Shown piece after piece: positions 496-6,814 of a stretch of 7,097 bases of DNA. Position 1 is the first letter of the stretch. Each line of letters opens with the position of its first letter. Location of the stretch: IMG/VR virus record IMGVR_UViG_2671180846_000033. The stretch is one strand, 5' to 3'. The notes under the pieces are model-generated. The model did no database searches. It was not told where the DNA came from and saw nothing but the letters and a program-made list of their open reading frames with translations. A program made the position numbers and the translations under genes. Source of the DNA: a virus (taxonomy: Duplodnaviria; Heunggongvirae; Uroviricota; Caudoviricetes).

Positions 496-1269
496 ATGAC
501 TAAACATATGGACATTCATTGTCAAACACGCATATTTAACTCAATTAACCATGACACCAAATATAAAATATGTATTTTTACTCCAAAAAACATTAAAAAA
601 AATAATGCAACTCTTTATATACTTGATGGGAATAGTGCCAACAATTACATTTCTGATATTCTGCCTGTTATTGATGCACTACCCAATCCACCAGTGTTAG
701 TTACACTTGGTTATGAATCTTGGAATAACCTTAGCATTCATCGCCGTGCTTACGATTATACTCCTGATGGTGAAAATGCTATTGTTGATAACTCTAAACC
801 AGCATGGATCTACTTTACTGGTGGAGGAAGCCAGTCTTTCCGAGAATTATTACTAACTCAGATCATGCCATGGGTTAGTACTATTGCTCCGAACAGTTCC
901 AGAATCGGTATATGGGGGCACTCGCTAGGTGCTATTTTTGTGCTTGATTGCTTAAAAAATAATTCATGCTTTAACTATTATTATATATCTGCACCATCAC
1001 TTCTATGGCAGAATGAAAGAATCATCAAGATAATTAAAGATGATATATCAGAATCAAAGCACACTAAAAGTATATGCTTGCTTAACGGAAATCTTAGCCT
1101 TGATTACTCCGCATCTTTATATCCTGAAGCCATCAAAGCGGAATCTGTTTTGAGAAATATTTTGACAGAAAAATACAGTAATTTTTCTATTGTACAATTT
1201 CCAGAGCTCAATCATCAGGAGACTTTCTCTGCTGCACTCTGGAATAGCATTATTCATTTCAGCATATAA
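496..1269 (+). CDS. Alpha/beta-hydrolase, putative esterase of the IroE/Fes (siderophore esterase / esterase D) type; no recognisable N-terminal signal peptide
   Basis: 257-aa ORF with ATG at 496 preceded by GGGGAG (485-490). Contains a G-H-S-L-G nucleophile elbow (Ser codon 922-924), an LDG motif near the N-terminus, AYDYTP, and a C-terminal ELNHQ histidine. The N-terminus is hydrophilic. The gene sits in visibly AT-rich DNA. Family call is from motif pattern only. Confidence 0.75.
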   Translation: MTKHMDIHCQTRIFNSINHDTKYKICIFTPKNIKKNNATLYILDGNSANNYISDILPVIDALPNPPVLVTLGYESWNNLSIHRRAYDYTPDGENAIVDNSKPAWIYFTGGGSQSFRELLLTQIMPWVSTIAPNSSRIGIWGHSLGAIFVLDCLKNNSCFNYYYISAPSLLWQNERIIKIIKDDISESKHTKSICLLNGNLSLDYSASLYPEAIKAESVLRNILTEKYSNFSIVQFPELNHQETFSAALWNSIIHFSI

Positions 1270-3399: not shown

Positions 3400-3449
3400 N
3401 NNNNNNNNNNNNNNNNNNNNNNNNNNNNNNNNNNNNNNNNNNNNNNNNN
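3400..3449. other. Run of 50 N at the O-like/P-like gene junction
   Basis: Directly visible in the sequence. Confidence 1.
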
Positions 3450-4168: not shown

Positions 4169-4254
4169 AATTGCCTCATCTTGTGACGAACCATCCTCTG
4201 GTGATATTCTGTGATTCCCCAATCAACAGAATCAGCAGGGGTCTGGCATAAATA

Positions 4255-4692
4255 TCAATGCACCACAACAGACTCGCCGGATGACCCGCCGTCGCTGAAA
4301 TACGCTTTCCGGTAAACTGCCTGGACTGCATCATCATGCGCATCAATTGCCGTGCTCAACGCTTCCTGGGCCGCCAGTAATGCACGGCGCTCAACAGTGT
4401 CAAAAATACTGAGGTGATAACGCAGTTCACGCGGAAGAACAGTCAGGATAGCTGGAATTAGTGCCTGAATTTTTTCAACAGCATCAGGCGTATCCTTTTC
4501 AAGCCAGCGAAAAATATTTTGTATGTTCAATCCAATACCCTCTGTCGTAGAGGTGTCATGCATTGGTGGATAAGTCATTTCAAGCTCAAAATATGCTGTC
4601 GCTATATCATCAGCGATTTTTTTGCGCCCTACCCTCGGATAAAGCAGCCACGCATTCATCGCCATGCGGATGTGCTCATGCTTGATTTTCAT
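4255..4692 (-). CDS. ydaT: YdaT-like protein (CII functional analogue of YdaS/YdaT-type prophages)
   Basis: 145-aa ORF starting MKIKHEHI with a C-terminal segment LIPAILTVLPRELRYHLSIFDTVERRALLAAQEALSTAIDAHDDAVQAVYRKAYF that I recognise as YdaT-family. Its ATG (4692-4690) overlaps the upstream gene's TGA in an ATGA junction. Confidence 0.75.
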   Translation of the reverse strand: MKIKHEHIRMAMNAWLLYPRVGRKKIADDIATAYFELEMTYPPMHDTSTTEGIGLNIQNIFRWLEKDTPDAVEKIQALIPAILTVLPRELRYHLSIFDTVERRALLAAQEALSTAIDAHDDAVQAVYRKAYFSDGGSSGESVVVH

Positions 4693-4949
4693 GAATCAAC
4701 TCCCGCCGCTGCTTGTGCGTTAGCCTGATACTCAACAGGTAAACCATCGGTTGGATTAGGGTATTTATCAGGGCGCAATTCATGCGGAGTTACTCCCCAG
4801 TCAAGCGCCTCACATGCTGGTATAACCTCCTCCGCTGGCACTCGTTTTTTAAACCACCCACTTATGGTTTGCGGTGTTTTACCAAGACGACGCCCTAATT
4901 CTGATTGGCTCATTATTGACAGGATTTTCACTTGAGTACTTTTTTGCAT
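4689..4949 (-). CDS. ydaS: Cro-like HTH regulator, YdaS-like
   Basis: 86-aa ORF with ATG at 4949 preceded by GGAGGG. HTH segment SQSELGRRLGKTPQTISGW; divergent from the repressor gene. Confidence 0.7.
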   Translation of the reverse strand: MQKSTQVKILSIMSQSELGRRLGKTPQTISGWFKKRVPAEEVIPACEALDWGVTPHELRPDKYPNPTDGLPVEYQANAQAAAGVDS

Positions 4950-5075
4950 GTTTCCCTCCGAACTTTACGATGACACCGATAATTACAAATTTAAATTTAA
5001 ATTTCAACTTCTATTTGTAATGCCACTTATCAATTTTTTCTGTAGGATCGCGGAACTAGTTTACGAGGGGTGGTG
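4950..5075. promoter_or_regulatory. Divergent control region between the Cro-like and CI-like genes (OR-like)
   Basis: ATTACAAAT (4982-4990) and its reverse complement ATTTGTAAT (5013-5021) flank a palindromic (AAATTT)x3 tract (4987-5004). The 14-bp motif AATTACAAATTTAA (4981-4994) recurs at 6223-6236. Ribosome-binding sites for both flanking genes are present. Confidence 0.6.
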
Positions 5076-5468
5076 ATGATCTTTGTAAAACGCCTTCAGC
5101 AGGTGTTGCAGGAATTGAATATAAACCAGTCAGAGCTGGGAAGACGTCTTGGTGTAAAACCCCAATCCGTGCAAGGTTGGTTGAAAGGCGTGATGCCAAG
5201 AATGGATAAACTGGAAAAATTAGCAGAGCTCTCACAACATCCCGTCCATTGGTTCTTTATGGAAGAAGAAACTCTCGGCGATAAAATGGCTGTATCCAGT
5301 AATGACAACCAACCGCAACTTACAGAACAACAACGAAAAATCATATCGCTTTTAGATGAGTTACCTCAAAGCGACGCAGAGCAGATCATTCGTGATATGG
5401 AGCAAAAACGCGATTTCTATAAACGGAAACTTGAAGAGTTACTGCGGCAGAAAAACAAAACTGCCTGA
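5076..5468 (+). CDS. CI-like phage repressor, XRE-family HTH with coiled-coil-like C-terminus and no S24 peptidase domain
   Basis: The track ORF starts at GTG 5070; ATG at 5076 is preceded by GAGGGG (5065-5070). HTH segment NQSELGRRLGVKPQSVQGW; C-terminal 50 aa are charged and heptad-like. About 130 aa, too short for a LexA-type cleavage domain. Confidence 0.8.
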   Translation: MIFVKRLQQVLQELNINQSELGRRLGVKPQSVQGWLKGVMPRMDKLEKLAELSQHPVHWFFMEEETLGDKMAVSSNDNQPQLTEQQRKIISLLDELPQSDAEQIIRDMEQKRDFYKRKLEELLRQKNKTA

Positions 5469-5499
5469 TGCATTCCTTTTCTGGAACGAGCATCAGGCA
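5462..5499. terminator. Hairpin between the convergent repressor and higA genes (candidate bidirectional terminator)
   Basis: TGCCTGATGC (5462-5471) pairs with GCATCAGGCA (5490-5499), with inner TTCC/GGAA pairing. A T-rich tract follows on the minus strand (reverse complement of 5441-5461). Confidence 0.5.
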
Positions 5500-5514
5500 A
5501 ATGACTAGCAGATT

Positions 5515-5874
5515 TTATAATCCAACCAGGCTTTCCAGGGGGATACCAAATTGATTATGAAGACGGCGAATCATTGGTAACGTAAGGCTTCTGGTACCAT
5601 TCAACACCTCATAAACCCGATTTTTTTTCCCAATTGCGGGTTCCAAATCTTTCACAGTCAGCCCCTGCTGTTCCATGCGAAATCTTATAGCTTCAATTGG
5701 GGATGGTGGCTCAATGGGATAATGTTTTTTTTCATATTCCTCTATTAGCAAACACATCACCTCAAAAAAATCCCCCTCAGGCGTGTCAATTTCGGGCTCA
5801 TTGTCGAACATGGGTTCAACAGCACGCAACGCGGCTTCATAATCTTGCTCTGTACGAATAGGTTTGATGTTCAT
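5515..5874 (-). CDS. higA: HigA-type antitoxin (XRE HTH, type II TA)
   Basis: 119-aa ORF with C-terminal HTH LTVKDLEPAIGKKNRVYEVLNGTRSLTLPMIRRL. Starts 2 nt after the toxin stop, with GGAG upstream. Confidence 0.8.
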   Translation of the reverse strand: MNIKPIRTEQDYEAALRAVEPMFDNEPEIDTPEGDFFEVMCLLIEEYEKKHYPIEPPSPIEAIRFRMEQQGLTVKDLEPAIGKKNRVYEVLNGTRSLTLPMIRRLHNQFGIPLESLVGL

Positions 5875-5876
5875 GC

Positions 5877-6179
5877 TTACTCCAGTTCGATGGTATCAGC
5901 ATCAATAGCATCGTATTCCTTGTGGTTTCCGATGAATTTAACAAATACCCATCCTCGCTGATACGCAATTGCAACAATTAAACGGTAATGATTACCTTTT
6001 ATGTTGAATACCACGCGCCGGTTTTTCAATATACTGGCCGTTCGGTATTGTGCCTTAATGTCTGCTGGGCTTTTCCAGTCAGCTTTTGCCGCCTCATCCA
6101 CCCATGCCCTTAGCGGTTGTTCTGCATCAGGATTCTCCGCCCAAAAATCCCTGAGTGTTTTAACTGAGATAATCTTCAT
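5877..6179 (-). CDS. higB: HigB-type toxin (RelE/ParE superfamily)
   Basis: HigB-like pattern in the translation, including GNHYRLIV and KFIGNHKEYDAID. The track start (6224) is a TTG; the ATG at 6179 gives about 100 aa. Toxin precedes antitoxin, as in HigBA modules. Confidence 0.8.
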   Translation of the reverse strand: MKIISVKTLRDFWAENPDAEQPLRAWVDEAAKADWKSPADIKAQYRTASILKNRRVVFNIKGNHYRLIVAIAYQRGWVFVKFIGNHKEYDAIDADTIELE

Positions 6180-6190
6180 AACTGTATAGT

Positions 6191-6207
6191 AGTCCCATTT
6201 TGGGACT
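6191..6207. promoter_or_regulatory. Perfect 17-bp palindrome AGTCCCATTTTGGGACT just upstream of higB (candidate HigA/HigBA operator)
   Basis: Read directly from the sequence; lies 12-28 nt upstream of the higB ATG on the minus strand. Confidence 0.5.
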
Positions 6208-6222
6208 GATGCAACAGCCCGC

Positions 6223-6276
6223 AATTACAAATTTAATAATAAACATGTTGACCAGTTAAATTTTAATTTGTAAATT
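6223..6276 (+). promoter_or_regulatory. pL-like promoter/operator region for the rightward early operon (OL-like)
   Basis: Second copy of AATTACAAATTTAA (6223-6236); TTGACC (6248-6253), 17-bp spacer, TAAATT (6271-6276); inverted ATTTGTAA (6266-6273) overlaps the -10. Confidence 0.5.
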
Positions 6277-6457: not shown

Positions 6458-6814
6458 GTGGGCGAAGTCAAACATCAGAATGGAAGGCATCCAGGGATCA
6501 GCAAAGAAACAGCGATGGCGCTTTATATTGATATCAGCGCCATTGCCGGACAGGTAAGAATTATCAGAGCGGTAACTAAGCGGTATGCGCCTTTACTTCA
6601 GAAAGTCTCTGGTGAGTGCACCGAAGATATTGTCAACGATTTCGTCATCAAACTGCGAGGACTCATCTTCAGTTACAAGGTGACCACAATTTTTGCAGAT
6701 GGCTCCCGCGAAACTGTCAGAGCCCTGCGGCTTAAAGGATGTGTCAAAGACTTAGCCACCACATTCTGGGCAAGAAAACTTGATTGTATTCATAACCAAT
6801 TTCCTCTCGAGTAA
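6458..6814 (+). CDS. Hypothetical early-left operon protein
   Basis: 118-aa ORF from GTG 6458 (AGAGGA 7 nt upstream) or about 100 aa from ATG 6515. No family recognised. Confidence 0.5.
   Translation: MGEVKHQNGRHPGISKETAMALYIDISAIAGQVRIIRAVTKRYAPLLQKVSGECTEDIVNDFVIKLRGLIFSYKVTTIFADGSRETVRALRLKGCVKDLATTFWARKLDCIHNQFPLE

Follow-up and report, generated by a model that had tools for sequence, protein, structure and literature searches.

Organization of the immunity region

The DNA analysed here, referred to below as the window (7,097 nt), is the immunity region of a lambdoid prophage of Shiga toxin-producing E. coli (STEC) O26/O103. Positions 4200–5900 are 100% identical to prophages of STEC O26/O103, in which the region is flanked on one side by the gene for replication protein P and on the other by ydfC, dicB, exo, and int. 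The module is carried by at least 136 of the 5426 complete E. coli genomes searched. A search of the phage database gave no near relative of the repressor/cro part, and the matches were restricted to ydaT and small fragments. The RefSeq product names at the module are "toxin YdaT family protein" and "helix-turn-helix domain-containing protein."

Two genes are transcribed divergently from a control region of 126 bp (Table 1) and occupy the cI and cro positions of a lambdoid immunity region. The cro-like gene, preceded by a GGAGG Shine-Dalgarno sequence 5 nt 5′ of its start, is the first early rightward gene and lies 5′ of the cII analogue, a ydaT-like gene, which is followed on its 3′ side by replication genes of the DUF1376/DnaT type and the P type. 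The Pfam and PHROG assignments (YdaS, HTH_3, YdaT/CII-like, and DUF1376 with DnaT) match the roles expected from this order, and the divergent arrangement of Cro and repressor recurs at 78 of the 79 related loci in which a divergent partner ORF could be located. A higBA toxin-antitoxin pair (5515–6224) separates the repressor gene from the candidate OL/PL; it is an accessory insertion and has no part in the resemblance of the helix-turn-helix (HTH) segments discussed below.

Table 1. Positions of genes, HTH segments, and candidate regulatory sites in the window
Feature	Position (nt)	Strand	Evidence or sequence
ydaT-like gene (CII analogue), second in the rightward operon	4255–4692	−	PF06254; phrog_163 CII-like activator, E 5e-37
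cro-like gene, YdaS family, 86 aa; first in the rightward early operon	4689–4949	−	ORF, Pfam, phrog_35
HTH of the Cro-like protein	4848–4907	−	DSSP on AF2 model; coordinates from ORF start 4949
QSELGRRLG codons in cro, residues 15–23	4881–4907	−	CAA TCA GAA TTA GGG CGT CGT CTT GGT
Candidate PR for cro-ydaT	4979–5007	−	TTGAAA, 17 nt, TG-AATTAT; 9/12 match, extended −10 TG
Candidate operator OR-a	4984–5000	.	TACAAATTTAAATTTAA; left half perfect TACAAAT; overlaps candidate PR −10
Candidate operator OR-b	5003–5019	.	TTCAACTTCTATTTGTA; right half perfect ATTTGTA; overlaps candidate PR −35
Candidate PRM −35 (weak)	5020–5025		ATGCCA
Weak third operator-like site, nearest the repressor gene	5029–5045	.	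TATCAATTTTTTCTGTA; each half 5/7 match to TACAAAT
Immunity repressor gene, 130 aa from ATG 5076	5076–5468	+	ORF, HTH_3, RefSeq annotation
HTH of the repressor	5127–5183	+	DSSP on AF2 model
QSELGRRLG codons in the repressor, residues 18–26	5127–5153	+	CAG TCA GAG CTG GGA AGA CGT CTT GGT
higA of the higBA toxin-antitoxin pair	5515–5874	−	HTH_3
higB of the higBA toxin-antitoxin pair	5877–6224	−	HigB_toxin, E 6.6e-33
Candidate OL/PL	6225–6276	+	half-sites TTACAAAT (6225–6232) and ATTTGTAA (6266–6273)
Candidate OL 17-mers	6226–6242; 6256–6272
Candidate PL, reading towards ydfC/dicB/exo/int	6248–6253; 6271–6276	+	TTGACC, 17 nt, TAAATT

The repressor and the Cro-like protein

The repressor ORF opens at GTG 5070; homologues and the RefSeq annotation begin at ATG 5076, which is the likely start. 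The protein consists of an N-terminal XRE HTH domain, a disordered linker, and a C-terminal helical domain. In its AF2 model helices span residues 2–14, 18–25, 29–36, 43–53, 57–61, 84–94, and 101–129, the last two constituting the modelled C-terminus. The N-terminal part is a five-helix DNA-binding domain of the XRE/cI type; its model superposes on operator-bound P22 c2 with an rmsd of 1.2 Å over 61 columns, and also on 434 Cro (31% identity) and on 434 repressor. Pfam finds only HTH_3 (E 6.6e-9) and HTH_26 in the 130 residues and no S24 (LexA-like) peptidase domain, the RecA-responsive autocleavage domain of repressors of the lambda CI/LexA type. The term "CI-like" used for it in an earlier note on this DNA holds for its position but not for its domain content.

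The repressor is of a DicA/PaaR-like kind. The NCBIfam DicA model NF007257 aligns with the repressor almost end to end (E 2.7e-13; protein 3–129, model 6–132 of 135), although the score of 49.9 bits misses the curated cut-off of 101 bits. The alignment with DicA of the K-12 prophage Qin covers residues 6–129, including the C-terminal LP(E/Q)S...EELL helix, and ydfC and dicB lie downstream as in Qin; however, the identity to K-12 DicA is only 22%. The protein shares the DicA architecture, yet it is not a curated DicA member. Its whole length can also be aligned (local score 173) with the PaaR-like protein of a related locus, L084. A PaaR-type repressor of the three-component paaR-paaA-parE loci is co-transcribed with the genes for the antitoxin (paaA) and the toxin (parE), whereas here higA and higB lie downstream on the opposite strand.

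The Cro-like protein belongs to the YdaS-type, or all-alpha, Cro family (Pfam PF15943, COG4197). It scores 34.6 bits against YdaS_toxin PF15943 (gathering cut-off 30; E 1.7e-8), matches HTH_3 and phrog_35 as well, and keeps the YdaS motif VTPHELRPD..PNPTDGLP. A profile search of the PDB retrieved Xfaso1 Cro (3bd1) with E 1e-12 over 62 residues. The AF2 model (pLDDT 88.5) has helices at residues 3–12, 15–22, 26–34, and 39–48, and Foldseek places it on 3bd1 with TMt 0.80 and an rmsd of 2.2 Å. The model has the all-helical Cro fold, in which helices 2 and 3 form the HTH.

The shared helix-turn-helix segment

The earlier note had drawn attention to a stretch, QSELGRRLG, identical in the two proteins and followed by a similar helix, and both observations were confirmed. 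BLASTP aligns the proteins over 26 residues, of which 15 are identical (58%; E 2e-9), and hhalign of the two family profiles extends over 28 columns with a probability of 97.3%. Homology outside the HTH was detected neither by hhalign, whose alignment is limited to these columns, nor by eye in helix 1 or helix 4. Structure prediction places the shared segment inside the HTH of both models, and the refuting outcome named in the earlier note, a segment outside the DNA-binding helices, was thus not observed. In the repressor, helix 2 comprises residues 18–25 (QSELGRRL), the turn 26–28 (GVK), and helix 3 29–36 (PQSVQGWL); in the Cro-like protein the corresponding elements are residues 15–22 (QSELGRRL), 23–25 (GKT), and 26–34 (PQTISGWFK). 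The identical 9-mer thus corresponds to helix 2 with the glycine of the turn, and the recognition helix, PQTISGW in the Cro-like protein and PQSVQGW in the repressor, follows directly. As the 9-mer is a near-consensus positioning helix and not the recognition helix, it is weaker evidence for shared specificity than identity of the recognition helices would be.

The general XRE consensus reads Q-x-E-L-A-x-x-L-G, and QSELGRRLG is close to it. For this reason, YdaS-type Cro proteins and the repressors encoded next to them were taken from 80 genomic loci as an empirical background. Among the 1440 non-cognate Cro × repressor combinations of 19-mers outside the window clade, identity peaks at 5/19 and reaches at most 10/19, and the longest identical run is 6 (three cases). 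The window pair has 13/19 identical residues and a run of 9, so that its resemblance lies well beyond the family background. Among 32 dereplicated types, the repressor ranked best for the window Cro is its own cognate. Random re-pairing of cognates gave p = 5e-5 overall; however, in only 7 of the 32 types is the cognate repressor the best match, most other pairs being no closer than non-cognate ones, and the similarity is near nil for DicC/DicA of Qin. That a YdaS and its cognate repressor have, as a rule, a common HTH holds only in part. The local HTH scores are 38 for DicC/DicA, which are barely alike, 54 for Rac YdaS/RacR of K-12, which share part of the recognition helix (V-x-PPS-x-x-x-WIK), and 84 for the window pair. 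Since many YdaS/repressor pairs lack a special cognate similarity, the sharing of operators does not require the sharing of HTH sequence, and something further is needed for the near-identical HTHs found here, either history or constraints specific to the clade.

Both families keep QSEL[GA]RRLG, each together with its own recognition helix, in homologues that are 50–60% identical overall and come from Salmonella, Sodalis, Arsenophonus, and Serratia. Across five immunity types, the window type and its sisters, the recognition helices of Cro and repressor change together; the segments, given as Cro/repressor, are KTPQTISGW/VKPQSVQGW, RRAQTVNGW/AKAQSVNGW, KNSQTVSVW/VNSQTVSNW, VSQQTVFKW/VTQQTIQKW, and GVTQQTVWQW/GVTQQTVQQW.

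Candidate operators and promoters

The informative operator signal is an exact 8-mer half-site. TTACAAAT occurs four times in the window against 0.46 expected, a number reached in none of 200 shuffles, and all four copies are confined to 4983–5020 and 6225–6273, where they form convergent pairs over promoter-like sites. A single family of repeated half-sites was found in OR and OL. Looser definitions are less telling, as the 17-bp palindrome TRCAAATNNNATTTGYA with three mismatches gives three hits against 2.0 expected, which is not significant by count, and the 7-mer half-site with one mismatch is uninformative (27 against 29 expected). The half-site is also kept in other genera, whose intergenic DNA has otherwise diverged; there it is 21-fold enriched, a figure that comes from a partly circular test, the motif having been derived from the same AT-rich sequences.

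Within the control region, the end of OR-b adjoins the weak candidate PRM −35; the hexamers of this promoter, read by eye, match at 8 of 12 positions. At the position equivalent to OR-b, the related loci L004, L007, L017, and L020 have TGCAAATATAATTTG[CA]A. Nearer the repressor gene, the third site listed in Table 1 has a counterpart in Arsenophonus loci, TACAAAATTTTTTTGTT, and its role as a third operator is a speculation from the sequence. The centre-to-centre distance of 19 bp between OR-a and OR-b is unusual for cooperative binding of adjacent sites on one face of the DNA. A direct repeat present in both 5′ UTRs, GAACT(AG)TTTACGA, was considered as the site of a second regulator and dismissed, since the two copies have no more than a 7-mer in common, as could arise by chance. 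The layout of lambdoid OR and OL, one sequence repeated in both regions and overlapping promoter-like sites, was found here, and the sites are described as putative operators; those at OR are where a YdaS-type Cro would act to repress PRM and then PR.

Comparison with known systems

That Cro and the repressor of one phage act on the same operators by way of similar HTHs, and are probable ancient paralogues, has been textbook knowledge since 434, P22, and lambda. The corresponding segments of 434 repressor and 434 Cro read QAELAQKVGTTQQSIEQL and QTELATKAGVKQQSIQLI, and the two are about 48% identical over the domain. The half-site of the window, TACAAAT, includes ACAA, the core of the 434 operator. 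As in 434, and also in P22 c2/Cro, the repressor and Cro have closely similar HTHs; in those phages they bind the same operators, and here they would do so. Unlike in 434, where the likeness spans the whole domain, it is limited here to about 28 residues set in a YdaS/all-alpha Cro scaffold, and the repressors of 434 and P22 carry an S24 autocleavage domain that the window repressor lacks. From the all-alpha Cro proteins studied by the Cordes laboratory (Xfaso1 3bd1, P22, N15) there is no difference in kind; the window pair is one more allele, with a Cro/repressor HTH similarity at the top end of the range. In the literature, cro and cI are regarded as ancient paralogues that co-evolve with their operators, and through this co-evolution of Cro, CI, and operator the specificity of a Cro can be nearer to that of its own CI than to that of orthologous Cros; for 434, the proposal is that cro originated as a displaced copy of the DNA-binding domain of cI (PMC6649833).

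A close experimental parallel is the cryptic prophage CP-933P of E. coli O157:H7, in which PaaR2 and YdaS footprint on the same OR and OL operators, compete, and give bistability (Jurenas et al., 2021; PMC8630535). Like the PaaR2/YdaS/YdaT region, the window has a repressor that lacks a protease domain in the cI position, and ydaS (Cro analogue) and ydaT (CII analogue) form a divergent operon upstream of replication genes. OR and a distal OL/PL contain operators in CP-933P and candidate operators in the window, and a toxin-antitoxin module adjoins the repressor gene in both. The window differs in immunity specificity, that is, in recognition helices and operator sequences; the YdaS with a solved structure (8co2) and the window Cro share only about 20% identity, and the toxin-antitoxin module is higBA, whose transcription converges with that of the repressor gene and is separate from it. 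The sister locus L084 bears paaA2-parE; its YdaS and the window Cro are 56% identical, and its own pair shares 13/19 residues in the HTH. The identification of P0024/L084 with the CP-933P YdaS of PDB 8co2 was ruled out, as P0024 has no PDB hit at E ≤ 0.001.

The proposed switch and the origin of the resemblance

It is proposed that the locus is a bistable immunity switch of a lambdoid E. coli prophage of the Rac/Qin/CP-933P kind. The repressor (DicA/PaaR-like, 130 aa) and the Cro (YdaS-type, 86 aa), transcribed divergently from the 126-bp control region, would recognize the same pseudo-palindromic 17-bp operators with a half-site close to T[AG]CAAAT, and these operators would overlap PR and PRM between the genes and PL beyond higBA. 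The HTHs would be alike since both must fit the same DNA, and the shared pattern of the recognition helices, P-Q-[T/S]-[I/V]-x-G-W, would contain the residues that normally face the bases. The resemblance would be old, both lineages having an XRE-type HTH, and purifying selection together with co-evolution of Cro, repressor, and operator would have kept it, without recent exchange of DNA. We assign to this reading a probability of about 0.75. That the two regulators compete for the same operators, as the earlier note had suggested, is well supported by the cI and cro positions of the genes, the location of the shared segment in the HTH, the half-sites, the co-variation, and the example of CP-933P. 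We infer that both proteins bind the candidate sites and compete for them; any assignment of affinities to the individual sites and the activation by the repressor of its own promoter are likewise presumptive.

The DNA of the two genes bears on the age of the resemblance. The HTH-coding segments of cro and the repressor are 64% identical over 78 nt, and the same codon is used in only 8 of 15 shared residues; within the codons of QSELGRRLG, 7 of 27 nt differ, all seven synonymously. At 21 loci, nucleotide identity between Cro and repressor is 0.52 within a genome and 0.51 between genomes. A recent duplication, or an ongoing gene conversion of the HTH-coding segments with concerted evolution, could be imagined, as these segments are inverted and only about 220 bp apart and have in common a 10-nt identical run, ACGTCTTGGT; however, the divergence just described and the equal identities within and between genomes led to its rejection, and it is hardly credible. 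The identity of 64% and the lack of any sign of gene conversion indicate that the resemblance is old and held by selection, and the equal identities imply that any duplication was ancient. Duplication of one HTH module, the origin offered in the earlier note, thus remains plausible and agrees with the view of Cro and repressor as ancient paralogues, although the similarity extends over only 26–28 residues, with a DNA identity of just 64%. Ancient duplication and co-evolution on a common operator account for the data equally well.

Partial gene displacement would give the resemblance another history. An HTH segment of about 28 codons from the repressor would have replaced that of a YdaS-type cro in the ancestor of the clade, or the reverse, so that the resemblance would be a historical chimera and neither retained ancestry nor a product of co-evolution, comparable on a smaller scale to what has been proposed for phage 434 (PMC6649833). 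The edges of the similarity are sharp, with 58% identity in residues 13–38 and almost none on either side, and the C-terminal half of the Cro-like protein is typical YdaS (TPHELRPD...PNPTDGLP). Near the HTH edge cro is mosaic: compared with P0024, 19/45 residues are identical in the N-terminal half and 29/41 in the C-terminal half. The HTHs of the clade Cros are also slightly nearer to unrelated repressors than to unrelated Cros, with mean identities of 6.8 and 6.0 for the window type and 7.2 and 5.2 for type B. However, this lean is small, and the best match to a non-clade Cro (11/19) exceeds that to a non-clade repressor (9/19). Lineage-specific positions persist, moreover, in all sister types, the residue after the turn glycine being K/R in Cro and V/A in the repressor, and Q-T in Cro standing, for the most part, against Q-S in the repressor. 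As nucleotide identity is only 46–64%, without an excess within genomes, any swap must be ancient and is now indistinguishable from co-evolution. It is unlikely, though conceivable, that one enterobacterial clade of YdaS-type Cros took its HTH from the neighbouring repressor and that HTHs and operators then diversified in lock-step. The clade concerned comprises the window prophage and its sister immunity types as well as loci of the paaR-paaA-parE kind, L084 among them. If this history is true, the clade would be a natural series of matched triplets of Cro, repressor, and operator from which a residue-to-base recognition code could be read.

It may also be asked whether the two proteins share more than family membership. 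If near-consensus XRE helices had coincided in proteins that bind different sites, the identity would say nothing about shared operators; Q-S-E-L-x-R-R-L-G is near the Pfam HTH_3 consensus, with 4/9 residues (Q, L, L, G) found family-wide, the identical run is the positioning helix, and many cognate pairs of the family are no more alike than random ones. Such a coincidence is very unlikely given that the empirical background never exceeded a run of 6 or an identity of 10/19, that recognition-helix residues co-vary between partners in five immunity types, that one family of half-sites is repeated in OR and OL, and that footprinting in CP-933P shows shared sites (PMC8630535). The names YdaS_toxin and YdaT_toxin in Pfam, together with the RefSeq name of YdaT, suggest instead a toxin or type II toxin-antitoxin module in which the neighbouring HTH protein is only a repressor of the module and no Cro/CI-type switch exists, and Rac YdaS/YdaT are reported to be toxic on derepression (PMC5700373). 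That is highly improbable here, where the genes are arranged as in a lambdoid immunity and replication region, PHROG lists YdaT as a CII-like activator, and YdaS has a Cro fold; the literature also argues for Cro and CII analogues and against toxins (PMC5917428; PMC8630535; PMC9986795).

Significance

The proposed immunity switch follows a known principle and changes no concept, being an ordinary case of Cro and repressor that most likely share operators through similar HTHs. An immunity module that is common in prophages of Shiga toxin-producing E. coli but poorly annotated is now correctly labelled, and concrete candidate operators and promoters are supplied for it. The co-varying recognition helices of Cro and repressor constitute a small, usable data set on the evolution of heteroimmunity.

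The immunity region and its two regulators

The Cro-like and repressor genes are divergent and separated by 126 bp, as read from the ORF listing and the sequence. The 86-aa Cro-like protein passes the Pfam YdaS model and also HTH_3 (HTH, helix-turn-helix), and HTH_3 and HTH_26 are the only Pfam matches of the 130-aa repressor. Since the S24 protease domain is absent from the repressor according to Pfam, the description "CI-like" given in the earlier note holds by position and function only. The repressor shares its length and layout with DicA, and the NCBIfam DicA model aligned with it end to end (E 2.7e-13), but it scores under the cut-off of that model and is 22% identical to K-12 DicA. On the 3' side of the cro-like gene, Pfam and PHROG revealed YdaT, a replication protein with DUF1376 and DnaT domains, a P-like protein, and DUF977. 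The YdaT product is a CII-like activator according to PHROG; its RefSeq name, "toxin YdaT family protein", is an annotation issue. Prophages of STEC O26, O103, and other E. coli match the stretch 4200-5900 with 100% identity, and at least 80% of the stretch is present in 136 of 5426 complete genomes. In strain E2865 the region runs on to ydfC, dicB, exonuclease, and integrase genes in one direction and to RusA and further late-region genes in the other. Gene content and flanks therefore identify the window as the immunity region of a lambdoid, Rac/Qin-like prophage.

Positions of the features in the window
Feature	Position	Strand	Remarks
Esterase-like ORF	496-1269	+	257 aa, alpha/beta-hydrolase or esterase-like; GC 0.345
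50-base N runs (masked)	2344-2393, 3400-3449		inside DUF1627-like and P-like/DUF1376 ORFs
ydaT-like gene	4255-4692	-	CII analogue
Cro-like ORF	4689-4949	-	86 aa, begins MQKSTQVKILSIMSQSELGRRLGKTPQTISGWFKKRVPAEE
Repeat GAACTTTACGA / GAACTAGTTTACGA	4960-4973, 5054-5068		5' untranslated regions of cro and repressor gene
Candidate PR (promoter-like, cro)	5007-4979	-	TTGAAA, 17 nt, TG-AATTAT; overlapped by OR pair
8-mer TTACAAAT	4983(+), 5013(-), 6225(+), 6266(-)		four copies
Candidate OR 17-mers	4984-5000, 5003-5019		set by 8-mer pair
Candidate PRM hexamers	ATGCCA at 5020-5025	+	ATGCCA, 17 nt, TAGGAT; read by eye, weak
Repressor ORF	opens GTG 5070; start ATG 5076	+	130 aa, begins MIFVKRLQQVLQELNINQSELGRRLGVKPQSVQGWLKGVMPRMDKLEKLAEL; ATG start in homologues and RefSeq annotation
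higA/higB pair	5515-6224	-	between repressor gene and candidate OL/PL; convergent with repressor gene
Candidate OL 17-mers	6226-6242, 6256-6272		set by 8-mer pair
Candidate PL (promoter-like)	6248-6276	+	TTGACC, 17 nt, TAAATT; towards ydfC/dicB; overlapped by OL pair
118-aa ORF	6458-6814	+	longest ORF at this place; no Pfam match
RefSeq 66-aa protein	about 6593-6793	-	"ECs_2282 family putative zinc-binding protein", right of OL

In a related locus, L084, paaA2-parE (1982-2461 of that locus) occupies the slot that higA/higB holds here and is co-directional with the repressor gene, so different toxin-antitoxin modules appear to have landed repeatedly in this slot, which recalls rexAB in λ. The esterase-like ORF of the AT-rich left arm, probably a prophage cargo gene, was found in about 470 E. 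coli genomes, with an IS3-family element inside the matching stretch in several. The stretches of X in the ORF translations result from the N runs.

Extent and structure of the shared segment

The presence of QSELGRRLG in both proteins, pointed out in the earlier note, was confirmed (codons 4881-4907(-) in cro and 5127-5153(+) in the repressor gene). In BLASTP, 15 of 26 residues are identical (E 2e-9), and comparison of the two family profiles aligned 28 columns with a probability of 97.3% and nothing outside them. The AlphaFold2 model of the Cro-like protein (16-sequence alignment, pLDDT 88.5) has helices at 3-12, 15-22, 26-34, and 39-48; that of the repressor (pLDDT 76.6 overall, 87-90 in blocks covering the N-domain) has helices at 2-14, 18-25, 29-36, 43-53, and 57-61, a disordered linker, and helices at 84-94 and 101-129. 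The 9-mer falls inside the predicted HTH of both proteins: QSELGRRL forms helix 2, the positioning helix and the first of the motif, and the next G begins the turn. The identical run is outside the recognition helix, modeled as PQTISGWFK in the Cro-like protein and PQSVQGWL in the repressor. The Cro-like protein matches Xfaso1 Cro by sequence profile (E 1e-12) and by Foldseek on the model (TMt 0.80); the repressor N-domain model superposes on operator-bound P22 c2 at 1.2 Å, and also on 434 Cro.

Because QSEL-RRLG is near the XRE consensus, a family-specific background was built by a YdaS-alignment scan with one genome per species, which gave 80 loci, 79 of them with the Cro-like ORF paired with a divergent upstream ORF. 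Among 1440 non-cognate Cro × repressor 19-mer combinations outside the clade, identity was centred on 5/19 (maximum 10/19) and the longest identical run was 6, compared with 13/19 and a run of 9 in the window pair. For 32 dereplicated HTH types, the mean local-alignment score was 41.1 for cognate pairs vs 33.1 after random re-pairing (permutation p = 5e-5); the window pair has the top score (84), with the cognate in first place. Not every type shows this effect: the true partner ranked highest for only 7 of the 32, and many pairs resemble random ones. Among the K-12 prophages, YdaS/RacR of Rac have part of the recognition helix in common (score 54), and DicC/DicA of Qin are scarcely alike (score 38).

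Origin and co-variation of the two segments

The earlier note also proposed that the pair arose by duplication of one HTH module. This is plausible as an ancient event, in line with the view of cro and cI as ancient paralogues co-evolving with operators (PMC6649833), but DNA divergence excludes a recent one. In the nine shared codons 7 of 27 nt differ, every change being synonymous; the 26 aligned codons have 64% nucleotide identity, with the same codon at only 8 of 15 identical residues; and across 21 loci Cro/repressor nucleotide identity is 0.52 within a genome and 0.51 between genomes. Recent duplication and concerted evolution are ruled out on these grounds, and the identity of the HTH segments is kept by selection on the protein. 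Displacement of the HTH alone, comparable to 434 cro, which is a displaced cI domain (PMC6649833), is a weaker explanation of the resemblance. It would agree with the sharp bounds of the similarity, with a mosaic joint within cro, and with Cro HTHs leaning slightly towards repressors. Compared with P0024, the YdaS protein of L084 (3001-3261), the N-terminal HTH half of the Cro-like protein is identical at 19/45 positions and the C-terminal half at 29/41; it seems that the HTH half of cro moves together with the repressor and operators, and that the C-terminal half goes with the ydaT side.

QSEL[GA]RRLG and the own recognition helix of each protein are kept in homologues down to 50-60% overall identity (Salmonella, Sodalis, Serratia, Arsenophonus), and the HTHs differ in more distant YdaS proteins. 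Across sister immunity types the recognition helices of the partners vary jointly: KTPQTISGW/VKPQSVQGW (Cro/repressor) in the window type, and RRAQTVNGW/AKAQSVNGW, KNSQTVSVW/VNSQTVSNW, VSQQTVFKW/VTQQTIQKW, and HEPQAISSW/ISPQAIQQW in the others. In L084, where paaA2-parE adjoins the repressor gene, TQAEIGRYMGVTQQTVWQW is paired with SQAELARRVGVTQQTVQQW (13/19). Lineage marks are kept throughout, namely K/R (Cro) vs V/A (repressor) after the turn Gly and mostly Q-T vs Q-S. Judged from the sequences, the two HTHs are lineages tracking each other and not products of back-and-forth copying of one sequence. A Serratia marcescens locus (L004, 2415-2600) combines a type-A Cro helix, KRPQTISVW, with TAQSVQAW in place of KPQSVQGW in the repressor and may be an intermediate immunity type; its operators, TGCAAATATAATTTGCA and TACAAATATTATTGGTA at a spacing of 19 bp, are the best palindromes in the set.

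Candidate operators and the proposed switch

Four exact copies of the 8-mer TTACAAAT are present in the 7.1-kb window, where 0.46 would be expected, and 0 of 200 shuffles reached four; the 17-mer count by itself is not significant in the window. The copies form two convergent pairs, in the repressor/cro intergenic DNA and just past higB, and the candidate OR sites lie 19 bp apart, centre to centre. In loci of Serratia, Phlomobacter, and Arsenophonus with similar recognition helices, the intergenic DNA has diverged except for TGCAAATATAATTTG[CA]A and similar palindromes of 7-3-7 form, which are kept; intergenic variants of sister types B and C are TACAGAT-N3-ATCTGTA and TACAAAG-TTT-CTTTGTA. In the intergenic DNA of five loci the density of the half-site is raised 21-fold, the motif having been derived from the same AT-rich sequences. 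The GAACTTTACGA / GAACTAGTTTACGA direct repeat, which points opposite ways with respect to the two genes, may be chance because it is exact over a 7-mer only.

In the proposed mechanism, a repressor dimer, oligomerising via its C-terminal helices, would occupy the OR and OL sites and shut off PR (cro-ydaT-replication) and PL (ydfC-dicB-exo-int), and, when bound directly beside the weak PRM -35, it might stimulate its own transcription. After loss of the repressor, Cro would be made from PR, bind the same sites in another order of preference, and shut off PRM, and these opposing actions would give two stable states. For PaaR2/YdaS/YdaT of CP-933P, footprinting and reporter work established the same logic (PMC8630535), and Rac is generally understood in this way too (PMC5917428). 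The suggestion that the two regulators compete for the same operators is supported by inference, and the near-identity of the HTHs most likely reflects the fit of both proteins to a single operator family. The switch is a new allele of a familiar type, with Cro/repressor HTH similarity at the upper end of the range.
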